A DNA stretch of 64,000 nucleotides, from the NCBI RefSeq assembly GCF_058153355.1, contig NZ_CM177019.1, one strand, 5' to 3'. The position numbers and the translations under genes are program-made. The notes beneath the pieces were generated by a model, which was not told where the DNA came from, did not search any database, and saw only the letters and a program-made list of their open reading frames with translations. Below, in pieces: positions 11,084 to 54,121 of the stretch (position 1 is the first letter of the stretch; every line of letters starts with the position of its first letter).

Positions 11084-11449
11084 GTCGACAGGGAGTCAGA
11101 CAACGAAGTGAACATCAGGATGATGACACTTCTGAAGGACACACCAGGAGGGTGTTTCAGGGAAAGGCTTCTGGATGAAGCGAAGAGGATGACGCAGGAC
11201 GCGTTAAAGGACACCTCCAGGATGGAGAATGAGAACCGGTCAGGATGATTCGGTGGGTCAGGAAGGCCAGGGACACTTCAGGATGAAGTATCACATCGGG
11301 GTGGTGTGAGCAGGAAGCAATAGTTCAGGATGAACTATTGGCCGCAAGGCCAGAGGAAAAGTTGTTAAGGATGAGCAGGGAGCAACAAAAGTAGCTGGAA
11401 TGCTGCGAAACGAACCGGGAGCACTGTGAATACAGTGCTCCCTTTTTTT
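11084..11449 (+). ncRNA. csrB: CsrB small RNA (CsrA-sequestering)
   Basis: Begins GTCGACAGGGAGTCAGACAACG; about 18-20 repeated CAGGA(U)G/AGGA motifs at roughly 15-25 nt intervals; ends in a GC hairpin GGGAGCACTGTGAATACAGTGCTCCC followed by T7 (11418-11449). Confidence 0.92.
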
Positions 11450-11494
11450 ATTCCTGCTATCCTTCGCGGCAGTTTTTCTTATTGAGGTTGCTTT

Positions 11495-49869: not shown

Positions 49870-50604
49870 ATGTCCAAACTCGATCTAAATGCCCTGAACG
49901 AACTGCCGAAGGTAGATCGCATTCTGGCGCTGGCGGAAACTAACGCCGAGCTTGAAAAACTGGATGCTGAAGGCCGCGTTGCCTGGGCGCTGGATAATCT
50001 GCCCGGTGAATATGTGCTTTCTTCCAGCTTCGGTATCCAGGCGGCGGTTAGCCTGCATCTGGTGAATCAGATTCGCCCGGATATTCCGGTGATCCTCACC
50101 GATACCGGTTATCTGTTTCCGGAAACCTACCGCTTTATTGACGAGTTAACGGACAAACTCAAGCTCAACCTGAAAGTGTACCGCGCTACCGAAAGCGCCG
50201 CCTGGCAGGAAGCACGCTACGGCAAACTGTGGGAGCAGGGCGTTGAAGGCATTGAAAAGTACAACGATATCAACAAAGTCGAACCGATGAACCGGGCGCT
50301 GAAAGAACTGAACGCACAAACGTGGTTTGCTGGCCTGCGCCGTGAACAATCCGGCAGCCGCGCTAATTTACCGGTGTTGGCAATTCAGCGTGGCGTATTT
50401 AAAGTGCTGCCGATTATCGACTGGGATAACCGAACTATTTATCAGTATCTGCAAAAACATGGCCTGAAATATCACCCATTATGGGACGAAGGATATTTAT
50501 CGGTTGGTGATACCCATACAACCCGTAAATGGGAACCTGGTATGGCGGAAGAAGAAACGCGTTTCTTTGGCTTAAAAAGGGAATGTGGGCTGCACGAAGG
50601 GTAA
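49870..50604 (+). CDS. cysH: phosphoadenosine phosphosulfate reductase
   Basis: ORF 49708-50604 trimmed to [10 protein letters not shown]... (244 aa) with GAGGAA Shine-Dalgarno. Confidence 0.95.
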
Positions 50605-50868
50605 ATATTGCCGGATAAAATAAACGCCTCTGTCAGAAATGATGGGGGCGTTTTTATTTTGCGAGCCGCATTCCGGCATTTAAACGTGAATATAGCAGGG
50701 GAAATCAACAGTTATAGAATGGCGTCGGGTGCTTGAGGCTGTCTGGTGTTGAGCATTCGCGAGGTTCCAGATGGACAAAAGCCCCAGGCGATATATCTAT
50801 CAACCTGAGGCTTACGTTCGAACCCAAACAATTCGAATGTTAGTCTCTTCTTTGCAGGGAGGCAAGAC

Positions 50869-51021
50869 ATGCTGACAAAATATGCCCTTGTGGCAATCAT
50901 CGTACTGTGTTGTACAGTACTGGGATTCACGCTGATGGTAGGCGACTCGTTGTGTGAGTTGAGTATCAGAGAACGTGGTATGGAGTTTAAGGCAGTTCTC
51001 GCTTACGAACCGAAGAAGTAG
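50869..51021 (+). CDS. hokX: Hok/Gef-family small membrane toxin (50 aa)
   Basis: Not in the ORF track (under 60 aa). Translation [50 protein letters not shown] shows the Hok pattern (N-terminal TM helix, conserved LCE...R..G..E..A...AYE). Followed by GC hairpin CGCGGGGGTAAAACCCCGCG and a T-run. Locus name from my recollection of hokX/sokX between cysH and cas3 in K-12. Confidence 0.7.
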
Positions 51022-51259
51022 CCACCACGCGGGGGTAAAACCCCGCGTATTGAATTGTGATGGTTTGGTCTCCTGCACCCTTTTTTTCATTTATATTGTT
51101 TTTGTGAATATTATGCCTGTGTTTATTATTTATATATATCACAGATGAAAATCATTGAATTATTCATAATGTAAATATTTTATTGAACGATATATATCAC
51201 AGATAATTTTTAATATATGCGTAAATATCCTTTAAGTTTTACTGAAGGATAAAAACATT

Positions 51260-52911
51260 GTGACTTTCTTTGATTTCTGGGGAAAAACCCGACGTGGCGA
51301 GAAAGAGGGTGGCGACGATTATCACCTTCTTTGCTGGCATTCGCTGGATGTAGCCGCGATAGGCTATTTAATGGTCAAAAACAACTGTTTCGGGCTGGCT
51401 GACTATTTTCGTCAATTAGGTTTCGCTGACACGGATCAGGCAGCACAATTTTTCGCCTGGTTGTTGTGCTGGCACGATACTGGAAAATTTGCCCGCTCAT
51501 TTCAGCAACTTTACCTGCACCCACAACTCAAGGTTCCGGAAGGCGCAAGAAAGAATTACGAAAAGATCTCTCATTCAACGCTGGGTTACTGGTTGTGGCA
51601 TCATTATTTAATTGAATGTGAAGAGTTGCTTCCTTCATCTTCACTCTCTTTGCGCAAACTTAAACGGGTAATAGATATGTGGATGCCCGTGACGACCGGG
51701 CATCATGGTCGGCCTCCTGACCGTATCGATGAACTGGACAACTTTCTACCTGAAGACAAAGCTGCCGCACGAGATTTTCTCCTTGAAATCAAGGTACTGT
51801 TTCCGCTCATCGAGATCCCTACATTCTGGGATGATGACGAGGGCGTTGAACTTATAAAACATCTTTCCTGGTATATATCTGCAACCGTCGTACTCGCAGA
51901 CTGGACGGGATCGTCAACGCGGTTTTTTCCACGCGTCGCACATGTAATGGATATTAAAGATTACTGGCAGAATGCTTTAGCTCAGGCTCAAAACGCATTA
52001 ACCGTCTTTCCTCCAAAAGCAGAAACCGCACCTTTCACTGGAATTAACACGCTGTTTCCTTTTATTGAGAACCCAACACCGTTACAGCAAAAGGTGCTGG
52101 ATCTGGATATCAGCCAGCCAGGACCGCAGTTGTTTATTCTGGAAGATGTGACTGGCGCAGGTAAAACAGAAGCGGCGCTTATCTTGGCGCACAGGTTGAT
52201 GTCTGCGGGGAAAGCACAGGGTTTGTTTTTTGGCCTGCCAACAATGGCAACGGCCAATGCCATGTACGATAGGCTGGTAAAAACCTAGCTTGCTTTCTAT
52301 TCGCCACAATCCCGCCCCAGCCTGGTGCTGGCACACAGCGCTCGTTCGCTAATGGATCGCTTTAACGCATCGCTGTGGTCTGGTGATTTTGTGGGGTCAG
52401 AAGAACCGGATGAACAAGCGTTCAGTCAGGGATGTGCGGCCTGGTTTGCTGACAGTAACAAGAAGGCGTTGCTGGCTGAAATTGGCGTCGGCACGCTGGA
52501 TCAGGCGATGATGGCGGTGATGCCGTTCAAACATAATAATCTGCGGCTTCTGGGGCTGAGTAACAAAATCCTGCTAGCCGATGAGATCCACGCCTGTGAC
52601 GCTTATATGTCGTGCATTCTTGAAGGGCTGATCGAGCGGCAGGCGCGTGGCGGAAACAGCGTTATTTTGCTTTCTGCTACGTTGTCTCAACAGCAGCGTG
52701 ACAAACTCGTCGCCGCCTTTGCGCGTGGTGCAGAGGGCCAGCAAGAAGCTCCGTTGCTGGAAAAAGATGATTATCCCTGGCTGACGCATGTCACGAAATC
52801 CGATGTGCATTCGCACCGGGTAGCGACGCGCAAAGACGTTGAGCGCAGCGTGAGTGTGGGTTGGCTTCATAGCGAACAAGAGTGTATTGCGCGTATCGAA
52901 TCGGCGGTAAG
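51260..52911 (+). pseudogene. cas3: cas3 remnant (type I-E HD nuclease/helicase), in-frame TAG at 52286-52288 and 3' truncated at about codon 550
   Basis: Track ORFs 51260-52288 and 52325-52936 are in the same frame, separated by one amber codon; HD motif region (LLCWHSLDVAAIGY...HDTGKF) and Walker A (DVTGAGKTEA) present; reading frame runs directly into CRISPR repeat 1. Confidence 0.85.
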
Positions 52912-53062
52912 GTGTTCCCCGCGCCAGCGGGGATAAACCGTCGACAATGGATAAGTTGACTTCAGGTCTGGGGAGTTCCCCGCGCTAGCGGGAATAAACC
53001 GTGCAGTACGCCTGATGACAAACCAAGCATCGGGAGTTCCCCCGCGTCAGCGGGGGAACTCC
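52912..53062 (+). CRISPR. orphan type I-E CRISPR mini-array (3 repeats, 2 spacers)
   Basis: Repeat 1 52912-52940 GTGTTCCCCGCGCCAGCGGGGATAAACCG; spacer 52941-52972; repeat 2 52973-53001 (2 mismatches); spacer 53002-53033; degenerate terminal repeat from 53034. Spacers are 32 bp; repeat matches the E. coli I-E consensus. Confidence 0.9.
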
Positions 53063-53083
53063 CAGCTCCCATTTTCAAACGCC

Positions 53084-54121
53084 TCATGACGCCTTCGCCA
53101 GTTCCTTCACTAGCGGTAGCATTATCCGCATAACGTCACGGCAGCGACGTTCTATTCTTCCAGGAAGCGCCTTATCAATATGCTGTTGATTATCAAGCCT
53201 TACATCATGCCAGCTATTTCCCGCCGGGAAGGCCGGTGTTTTTGCGCGTTGCTGATAACCATCCTTATTTCCAAGATTCCAGTTGGTCGCCTCCACCGAA
53301 AGTACCGCAATACCGGCTTTGTCGAAAACTTCTGCATCGTTACAACACCCAGTGCCTTTCGGATAGTTTTTATTCAAACCTGGATTTGTTGTCGCTGCAA
53401 TCCCATGATTATGCGCAATTGCCAGCGCTCGATCACGGGTTAATTTCCTGACAGCCTCTGGTGTATTTACACCACTATTAAAATACAATTTATCGCCAAC
53501 AATTAAGTTATCGAGATTAATCACCAGCAGCGTATTTTTCTTTTCAGTATCGCTCATGCGCTTGAGTAAATTCTCAGCGCCTAATTTCCCTTCTTCTTCT
53601 CCACTGGTTGCCACAAAACGAATACCATACTCGGTAGGCGTATTTTTCAGACGTTCAGCCAGTTCCAGCATGACACCTAAACCTGCGGCGTTATCATCCA
53701 TTCCTTGTAATGTCAGCCCGCCGAGATTGGCATCGGCGTCGGCATCGCTCAGTGGAGCGTACGTATCAAGATGCGCCATAATAATGATCTGCTGCGGCGC
53801 TTTGCCTTCATGAGCGGCAATCACCGTACTTCCCGTCACGTTGTGCCAGTTTTTGCGGTTATCGCGGGCGGTGTAAATATATCGGCTATTAAATGTCCGA
53901 ATATCACTGCGATAACCCATCTGTTGAAACTGTTGGCGAATATAATCGGCAGATAACATTTCTGCAGGAGTTCCGGTCATGCGTCCCGGAAAGAAAGTAG
54001 CAATATGTCGTGCCTGTGTATTAGCAAAATCACCAGGTTTAGGTGACGAGGCGTGTACGGGGAGAATAAAGCATACGCCGAGCGCCAGGGCAGCGGTACG
54101 GTGGCGCAATGCGGAAAACAT
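53084..54121 (-). CDS. iap: alkaline phosphatase isozyme conversion aminopeptidase
   Basis: 345-aa ORF with signal peptide, recognised as Iap (M28 peptidase). Confidence 0.92.
   Translation of the reverse strand: MFSALRHRTAALALGVCFILPVHASSPKPGDFANTQARHIATFFPGRMTGTPAEMLSADYIRQQFQQMGYRSDIRTFNSRYIYTARDNRKNWHNVTGSTVIAAHEGKAPQQIIIMAHLDTYAPLSDADADANLGGLTLQGMDDNAAGLGVMLELAERLKNTPTEYGIRFVATSGEEEGKLGAENLLKRMSDTEKKNTLLVINLDNLIVGDKLYFNSGVNTPEAVRKLTRDRALAIAHNHGIAATTNPGLNKNYPKGTGCCNDAEVFDKAGIAVLSVEATNWNLGNKDGYQQRAKTPAFPAGNSWHDVRLDNQQHIDKALPGRIERRCRDVMRIMLPLVKELAKAS

Follow-up and report, generated by a model that had tools for sequence, protein, structure and literature searches.

The interval between cysH and a remnant of cas3 in the window (the 64,000-nucleotide stretch of contig NZ_CM177019.1 that was analysed) very probably holds hokX/sokX, a chromosomal type I toxin-antitoxin locus, in intact form, with regulation predicted to be like that of the R1 system but without an R1-type mok start. 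Judged by its sequence, the locus is a complete one of the hok/sok type and spans 50715-51087. It is already known, being annotated in RefSeq and named hokX/sokX in the literature. It is the cysH-side paralogue of K-12 hokE/sokE and is present in most E. coli.

The toxin frame and its distribution

The coding part of the locus consists of the toxin frame and, within it, a hairpin that carries the Tyr46 codon:

50869..51021, + strand: hok (hokX) coding sequence, ATG start, 50 amino acids plus stop; from the list of open reading frames, Pfam and a RefSeq-identical protein
50996..51017, + strand: Tyr46 hairpin, UUCUCG / CGAAGAA with loop CUUACGAAC; in the RNAalifold consensus structure

The first-pass annotation proposed a Hok/Gef frame of 50 codons at 50869-51021 that is free of lesions, and both statements are borne out, the first by the ORF call together with a full-profile Pfam match, the second by the absence of any stop or frameshift inside the frame. 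The protein scores 39.1 bits against HOK_GEF (PF01848), for which the curated gathering score is 22 bits, with E=5.7e-10 and residues 5-46 aligned to profile positions 1-42 of 42. It is a Hok, yet not a HokA, since it falls short of the cut-off of the NCBIfam HokA equivalog, NF007290 (52.8 bits vs 89); its identity with K-12 HokA is 51%. The closest paralogue is hokE/sokE of K-12 (b4415/b4835), which lies at another chromosomal site, near ybdK, and whose toxin is 80% identical to the protein here; the toxin of R1 hok/sok (parB) belongs to the same family, with 39% identity over 41 amino acids. The hydrophobic stretch, residues 5-24, makes up the N-terminal helix, and the SLCEL motif contains a cysteine, C29, that is invariant in 47 relatives. 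The signature LCE...R..G..E..A...AYE that the first-pass annotation read in the protein is good for assigning the family; its exact spacing is not, being approximate only.

The relatives referred to throughout are 52 copies of the hokE/hokX clade from species-representative genomes, of which 47 full-length mRNAs were aligned. Over 1,038 pairs in this alignment the hok codons have a median dN/dS of 0.14; on these sequence comparisons Hok is held under purifying selection, at a dN/dS of about 0.15.

Positions 50600-51260 are 100% identical to E. coli N96, in which the reading frame, flanked by cysH and a frameshifted cas3, is annotated as WP_000956457.1, 'Hok/Gef family protein', and the two proteins are identical. 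The gene had been described as missed by the ORF track, which is true of the first-stage track only; in N96 the identical gene is called by NCBI PGAP. The protein of other strains, WP_000956458.1 (also a 'Hok/Gef family protein', also in the cysH-cas3 interval), differs from WP_000956457.1 solely at residue 48, S for P. S48 is the commonest allele and P48 is less common; P48, the residue of the copy here, is also found in HokE and in 21 of the 47 relatives. A homologue designated 46_982, with S48 and otherwise the identical protein, has been cloned for a toxicity assay (bioRxiv 10.1101/2025.08.07.668861); in that screen 42 of 45 Hok homologues proved toxic, and 46_982 is not one of the three reported as non-toxic (bioRxiv 10.1101/2025.08.07.668861). 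The P48 product is predicted from its sequence to be a single-helix membrane toxin of 50 amino acids.

The codon for Tyr46 is TAC, and with the G that follows it (51004-51007) it forms TACG, which is a TadA editing motif at which tyrosine is recoded to cysteine (bioRxiv 10.1101/2025.08.07.668861). The codon lies within the invariant GCUUACGAA and is displayed in the loop of its hairpin; GCTTACGAA is invariant in 45 of the 47 relatives, and the remaining two have TGC (Cys). By analogy, Tyr46 of the hokX here may be recoded to Cys through this TadA-type TACG loop.

Among the hokX/sokX copies of E. coli the one in the window is the same locus in the same place, between cysH and cas3 or iap. When 5,426 complete E. 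coli genomes are searched with the coding sequence plus 3' UTR, 4,218 records give a best match of at least 95% identity, and about 78% of the genomes carry hokX. The coding sequence through to the fbi box (see below) is covered in 3,458 of the 5,426, including EDL933, Nissle 1917 and ST131. One class of genomes matches query positions 1-175 alone, the match ending at the GC-rich hairpin downstream of hok; the sole member of the class inspected, AMSCJX03, has an insertion sequence there. In 1,173 records the best match is only 80-90% identical, and for those listed the match is to the paralogue hokE, not to hokX. Published work gives a similar picture: hok plus sokX lie beside cysH in 90% of 237 urinary isolates, the others having, like K-12, sokX alone (PMC12736100), and hokX is inactivated by an insertion element in E. 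coli B and intact in strain NRG857c (PMC7232551). As to transcription, the sole evidence is that in O157:H7 EDL933 a small number of reads covers the leader (PMC5331693).

K-12 falls in the class of 80-90% best matches. A comparison with K-12 hokX, which the first-pass annotation recommended as a search for inactivating changes, has nothing to compare: K-12 is nearly identical to the window through the promoter, the leader and the hok ATG (six differing positions between ~50720 and the ATG; about 97% identity in the leader/Sok region) and diverges after the ATG, where its sequence becomes that of its own cas3 upstream region. At the K-12 cysH site sokX (b4701) is the sole annotated feature. 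The toxin ORF has been lost there and is retained here.

The sense RNA, Sok and the predicted switch

The elements of the hok RNA are given below, the definitions of the boxes (tac, ucb, dcb and fbi) having been taken from the R1 literature (PMC9841398). All are on the + strand.

50692-50697, + strand: putative, weak hok -35, ATAGCA; 17-nt spacer to TAGAAT
50715..50720, + strand: putative hok -10 box, TAGAAT; an inferred assignment, 6 nt upstream of the start of the Rfam match
50727..51087, + strand: inferred full-length hok mRNA of ~360 nt; 5' end GGGUGCUU, 3' end at the fbi box plus T-run
50727..50734, + strand: tac box, GGGUGCUU; pairs with fbi (full length) or with ucb (3'-shortened fold and Rfam consensus)
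50739..50774, + strand: 5' leader hairpin, stems 50739-50746 / 50767-50774; in both folds
50779..50785, + strand: ucb box (anti-SD), AAGCCCC; pairs with GGCUU of the SD-like box (full length) or with tac (shortened)
50807..50811, + strand: SD-like box GAGGC, the homologue of the R1 mok SD; from alignments with R1-like hok, hokC and the 47 relatives
50814..50840, + strand: hairpin ACGUUCGAA / UUCGAAUGU with loop CCCAAACAA; from the folds and the Rfam consensus
50842..50847, + strand: dcb box, AGUCUC; pairs with GAGGC in the shortened fold; covariation
50858..50862, + strand: hok Shine-Dalgarno, GGAGG; 6 nt before the ATG, invariant in the 47 relatives
51027..51048, + strand: GC-rich hairpin, ACGCGGGG-GUAAAA-CCCCGCGU; from the folds and from covariation (columns 318-319/339-340)
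51067..51080, + strand: fbi element, GCACCC (51075-51080) plus extension GGUCUC (51067-51072); pairing partners in the MFE fold
51081..51087, + strand: run of seven T directly after the fbi GCACCC

The leader matches Rfam RF01794 over the whole of the model (positions 1-157 of 157), at 50727-50884 on the hok-sense strand, and scores 111.5 bits (gathering score 59). Taking the Rfam 'sok' match for the antisense gene was considered and rejected: the model has the orientation of hok and stops at its ATG, and hence represents the leader and not Sok. Sok was placed instead through its homology with K-12 b4701:

50771..50829, - strand: predicted Sok antisense RNA gene (SokX homologue); coordinates transferred from K-12 sokX b4701 by alignment
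50837..50842, - strand: putative sok -10, TAACAT; 7 nt upstream of the transferred Sok 5' end
50860..50865, - strand: putative sok -35, TTGCCT; 17-nt spacer, overlapping the hok SD of the other strand

So placed, Sok would have a 5' tail of 16 nt and a long hairpin (the complement of 50779-50813) followed by UUUUGU; its predicted fold has an energy of -28.3 kcal/mol and z=-4.18. A consensus promoter scan brings neither the hok nor the sok promoter to threshold, and both were consequently placed by position or homology and by conservation. For sok, the -10 pattern TAnnAT is present in 47/47 relatives (as TAACAT, TACCAT or TACTAT) and GGAGGCAA at the -35 is invariant in the 47; we take the promoter to occupy the same position as that of R1 sok. 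For hok, TATAGAAT is kept in the cysH-linked copies of Escherichia and Kluyvera, while sequence farther upstream diverges; the copy here has a variant sequence upstream of its -10 box.

The layout is that of R1: the putative antisense gene is in the same place, tac, ucb, SD, dcb and fbi follow one another in the same order, and a 3' hairpin precedes fbi. The leader architecture is also shared with hokE, as are the tac/fbi logic (GGGUGCCU / AGGCACCU) and TACG at codon 46, with the difference that in K-12 an IS186 separates hokE from its fbi.

When the full-length RNA is folded (50727-51089), nucleotides 1-6 pair with GCACCC, nucleotides 9-14 with GGUCUC and ucb with the SD-like box (z=-3.35); that is, fbi and its extension hold tac GGGUGC and GAGGCU (50735-50740) in the MFE fold. 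When the RNA is cut after the GC-rich hairpin (50727-51050), it refolds to tac/ucb plus GAGGC/dcb. The closed-to-open switch of R1 is thus reproduced, in these predicted structures, by folding the hokX sequence of the window. The relatives point the same way. RNAalifold on the 47 retains the tac/fbi closing helix, and the closed-form boxes are 86.8% paired in the relatives; sliding the partner lowers this to 33-44%. For the open-form leader the pairing is 92.8%, and its 50 double-change cells compare with 14.5 in shuffled alignments, none of 500 of which reached 50. The individual elements contribute as follows: the tac/ucb helix is 95% paired across the 47 relatives; the leader hairpin has compensatory changes in columns 13-19/45-51, pair 15/49 being double-changed in 20 sequences; the SD-like box, which has ucb as its partner in the full-length fold and dcb in the shortened one, shows an A-U to G-C compensatory change in seven sequences; and the stem pairs of the 50814-50840 hairpin, whose loop and 5' arm are complementary to the Sok 5' tail, have 8-19 double changes each. 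Positions 1-6 of tac and the GCACC of fbi do not vary among the 47. (The tac/fbi and ucb/SD helices being invariant, covariation speaks neither for nor against them.) In the consensus structure the hok SD is predicted to be paired with the start-codon region (columns 140-146/156-162).

The 3' region contains both of the elements that the first-pass annotation had pointed out downstream of the frame, the GC-rich hairpin at 51027-51048 and the T-run at 51081-51087. Together they were considered as an intrinsic terminator, and rejected as a canonical one: 32 nt separate the two, folding gives no local stem before the T-run, a terminator scan does not call them, and conservation of the T-run does not extend beyond Escherichia. 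We infer instead that the hairpin is a stem that protects the 3' end of the processed mRNA. The T-run is possibly the transcript end; R1 differs here in having a separate terminator hairpin after fbi, the position that the T-run occupies directly in hokX. In other strains the GC-rich hairpin is a target of IS186/IS421: AMSCJX03 has its IS421 exactly at this place, and the sequence of the IS junction is common to K-12 hokC, K-12 hokE and E. albertii. In contrast to the copies of the E. coli B and AMSCJX03 types, the one in the window has a GC hairpin free of IS186/IS421.

On the model of R1, regulation would run as follows. The full-length hok mRNA is predicted to be locked shut by the pairing of 5' tac with 3' fbi, with ucb covering the SD-like GAGG. 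Slow trimming from the 3' end as far as the GC-rich hairpin (51027-51048) would remove fbi. The 5' end would then pair with ucb, and the leader would refold and expose the hairpin loop that Sok recognises. The opposite strand, transcribed constitutively from 50829 to 50771, would supply Sok, which would pair with the leader, the duplex being destroyed; toxin would be produced only once Sok was exhausted. R1 hok/sok is plasmid-borne and its post-segregational killing is proven, whereas the hokX of the window is chromosomal and known from sequence and predicted folds.

Probable translation of hok without a canonical mok start

A type I locus with an antisense Sok and an overlapping mok frame was what the first-pass annotation expected, and alignment with characterised loci was its suggested way of finding mok, sok and the fold-back elements. 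Alignment locates a putative Sok gene, through its homology with K-12 sokX, and the fold-back boxes; a canonical mok is not among them. In R1, hok translation requires a mok frame whose start lies 7 nt after GAGG. The codon after GAGG (50807-50810) is here ACG (50814-50816) and not ATG, and the frame closes after 9 codons. Neither here nor in any Escherichia copy of the 47-relative alignment is the GAGG box followed by ATG, GTG or TTG. The alignment does show an ATG after GAGG in hokC and R1, and at the R1-homologous site in 9 of the 47 relatives (in Kluyvera, Klebsiella, Pluralibacter and Enterobacter; 0 in Escherichia). In hokE, as in the hokX here, ATG is missing after the SD-like box. Searching the literature on mokE, mokX and sokE yielded only unrelated papers.

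Two other frames were considered. The longer, a 34-codon ORF at 50771-50875 with an SD (GAGG, 50761-50764), was rejected as mok: among the 47 aligned sequences it is open to hok in the window only, 1-nt indels in the loop break the frame in close relatives, and its ATG is buried in the leader hairpin. The shorter starts at an internal ATG of the longer:

50837..50875, + strand: 13-codon upstream ORF, without SD; its TGA overlaps the hok start (ATGCTGA); internal ATG of the ORF 50771..50875

The ATG at the 50837 column is the sole recurrent mok-like candidate in the 47 relatives. It is present in 39 of them, and the frame that it opens ends 7 nt into hok (+7) in 26 and is in frame with hok in 13; hokE has four additional nucleotides before the hok ATG, which put its upstream ATG in frame. 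Since the 50837 ATG lies in the sok -10 box, its conservation may be unrelated to translation. Six of the 47 relatives have neither candidate ATG.

The locus might accordingly be read as structurally complete but silent, its toxin never translated natively for want of a mok start: a harmless relic, as has been proposed for the chromosomal hok of K-12. The uniform absence of a start codon after GAGG in Escherichia fits such a reading, and so does R1 itself, in which, according to a published table (PMC9841398, Table 1), neither Mok nor Hok is translated once the mok start is substituted. In both predicted conformations, moreover, part of the hok SD is paired, and earlier work, as it is summarised in bioRxiv 10.1101/2025.08.07.668861, saw chromosomal hokA, hokB and hokC cause no post-segregational killing. 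A relic would not be expected to keep its 50-codon frame intact across genera, however. The 38 relatives without a mok ATG have a median dN/dS of 0.15, indicative of purifying selection, and the value is also low among the six without both ATGs. The RNA architecture, too, is kept from Escherichia to Kluyvera, Lelliottia and Klebsiella, and the flanks are not. We consider a silent locus unlikely.

From the alignments we conclude that a canonical mok is not a feature of the hokE/hokX clade, yet that Hok appears to be made. Translation probably depends on GGAGG, the strong SD of hok itself, and possibly the 13-codon upstream ORF assists. As a tentative proposal, about which we have considerable doubt, the hokE/hokX clade may have dispensed with mok, Hok being gated by the SD/start-codon hairpin and perhaps by the 13-codon ORF (with its stop overlapping the hok start or its frame continuous with hok), as well as by TadA recoding of Tyr46 to Cys. 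If that were true, the clade would be a mechanistic variant of the R1 paradigm and not a copy of it.

Genomic setting and significance

Upstream of the locus cysH ends at 50604, and it has its own terminator at 50622-50653. Downstream the cas3 fragment, which is broken across two frames, begins at 51260. The hok locus thus stands 172 nt upstream of the fragment, in the same orientation and with no canonical terminator between them, and this proximity is what favours a functional tie with CRISPR-Cas, in which hok would be an addiction module for the cas3 region or would supply a read-through transcript into cas3. Such a tie is very improbable. The first-pass annotation called the position upstream of cas3 notable; it is the ordinary E. 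coli arrangement, and the linkage that persists is with cysH. In E. coli strains without cas, hok still adjoins cysH, and iap is then the downstream neighbour. Linkage to cysH is seen in thirteen of the relatives (Escherichia species, Pseudocitrobacter, Kluyvera, Lelliottia, Pluralibacter and one Enterobacteriaceae isolate); iap is the downstream gene in nine of these, copies of other species and genera, and cas3 in only three of the thirteen. Conservation across genera starts at the -10/+1 and stops directly after the GCACCC of fbi, the flanks diverging. Most of the cas operon is deleted in the window and hok is intact all the same. Finally, hok genes are found near defence systems at 12% against 9.4% by chance, which is no enrichment (bioRxiv 10.1101/2025.08.07.668861). 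Synteny being with cysH, the nearness of cas3 is incidental.

The chance that the frame, short as it is at 50 codons, is an accidental opening in intergenic DNA is negligible in view of the full-length Pfam match, the Rfam match of the leader, the low dN/dS in 47 relatives and the RefSeq annotation.

For annotation, the reading of the interval as an intact hokX/sokX means that the unannotated gap should give way to two labels, hokX for the gene and sokX for the other strand, and that K-12, whose toxin ORF has been lost, is the exception. A further point, which may interest specialists, concerns the family. The best-conserved chromosomal hok clade is without the mok start that is essential in R1, and its toxin is still under purifying selection, which suggests that the textbook coupling of hok translation to mok is not universal in the family.

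Tyr46 codon and C-terminal end of HokX

The toxin frame and the elements at its 3' end are laid out on the plus strand as follows.

50869-51021, plus strand: hok coding sequence
50996-51017: hairpin within the end of the coding sequence
51004-51007: TadA-type TACG motif (the Tyr46 codon, TAC, plus G), in the loop of that hairpin
51027-51048: GC hairpin GGGGG-TAAAA-CCCC, downstream of hok
51067-51080: fbi box

Among the 47 aligned full-length hok mRNAs of the hokE/hokX clade, GCTTACGAA is unchanged in 45, synonymous sites included, and in Lelliottia and Pseudocitrobacter faecalis the Tyr46 position is hard-coded as Cys (TGC). This pattern agrees with the proposal in bioRxiv 10.1101/2025.08.07.668861 that A-to-I editing recodes Tyr to Cys, for which the motif here is a candidate site. 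The hokX of E. coli 2014C-3061 carries TAA in place of GAA at codon 47, which cuts Hok to 46 amino acids; the PGAP annotation has it as a 141-nt CDS (WP_106904281.1). This is a natural C-terminal truncation, and the residues directly past Tyr46 are lost.

The GC hairpin as an insertion target

Sequence comparison shows that IS186/IS421 has inserted repeatedly at the GC hairpin 3' of hok. The junction ...CCCATAAGCGCTAACTTAAGGGTTG is common to hokX of E. coli AMSCJX03, hokX of E. albertii, and K-12 hokC and hokE, and every one of these insertions parts the toxin gene from its own fbi box. In the window copy the GC hairpin is not interrupted by an IS.

Surroundings of hokX: the cas3 side

Downstream of hokX lies what is left of a type I-E CRISPR-cas locus.

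51260..52288 and 52325..52936: cas3 fragment, in two frames
52912-52940: perfect type I-E repeat, GTGTTCCCCGCGCCAGCGGGGATAAACCG, into which the cas3 fragment passes directly
after 52940: single spacer of 32 nt
52973-53001: degenerate repeat, 3' of the spacer
to about 53065: palindromic stretch
53087, minus strand: end of the match to iap, which comes after the palindromic stretch

The genes from casA through cas2 are missing from this region (51260-53090), as is the greater part of the CRISPR array. Coverage of 50600-53700 reaches 80% or more in only 67 of the 5,426 complete E. coli genomes; the top match among them is strain 2020CK-00188 (99.1%). In K-12, similarity to hokX (window 50869 onward) stops right behind the hok ATG and the K-12-type cas3 starts ~100 nt farther on; the hokX promoter, leader and sokX therefore lie directly upstream of cas3, and in the same orientation.

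CysH in three Pseudocitrobacter records is 97.6-99.2% identical to that of the window, and for the cas3 N-terminus, contig 35 of P. vendiensis shows 95% identity. Because these identities exceed those of some Escherichia records, they suggest either recent transfer or E. coli-like contigs inside those assemblies.

Rfam families and the strand of RF01794

At the gathering threshold, the Rfam search of the window returned, besides RF01794, no family except RF00018, a full-length CsrB sRNA gene (11093-11452, 377 bits). RF01794, named 'sok antitoxin', matches 50727-50884 in the same orientation as hok and stops at the hok ATG, and its reading as antisense Sok RNA is rejected on that ground: it is a model of the hok mRNA leader. 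Its hok-sense orientation has to be taken into account wherever strand calls are based on RF01794, as they are in PMC5331693 (RNA-seq table for EDL933).
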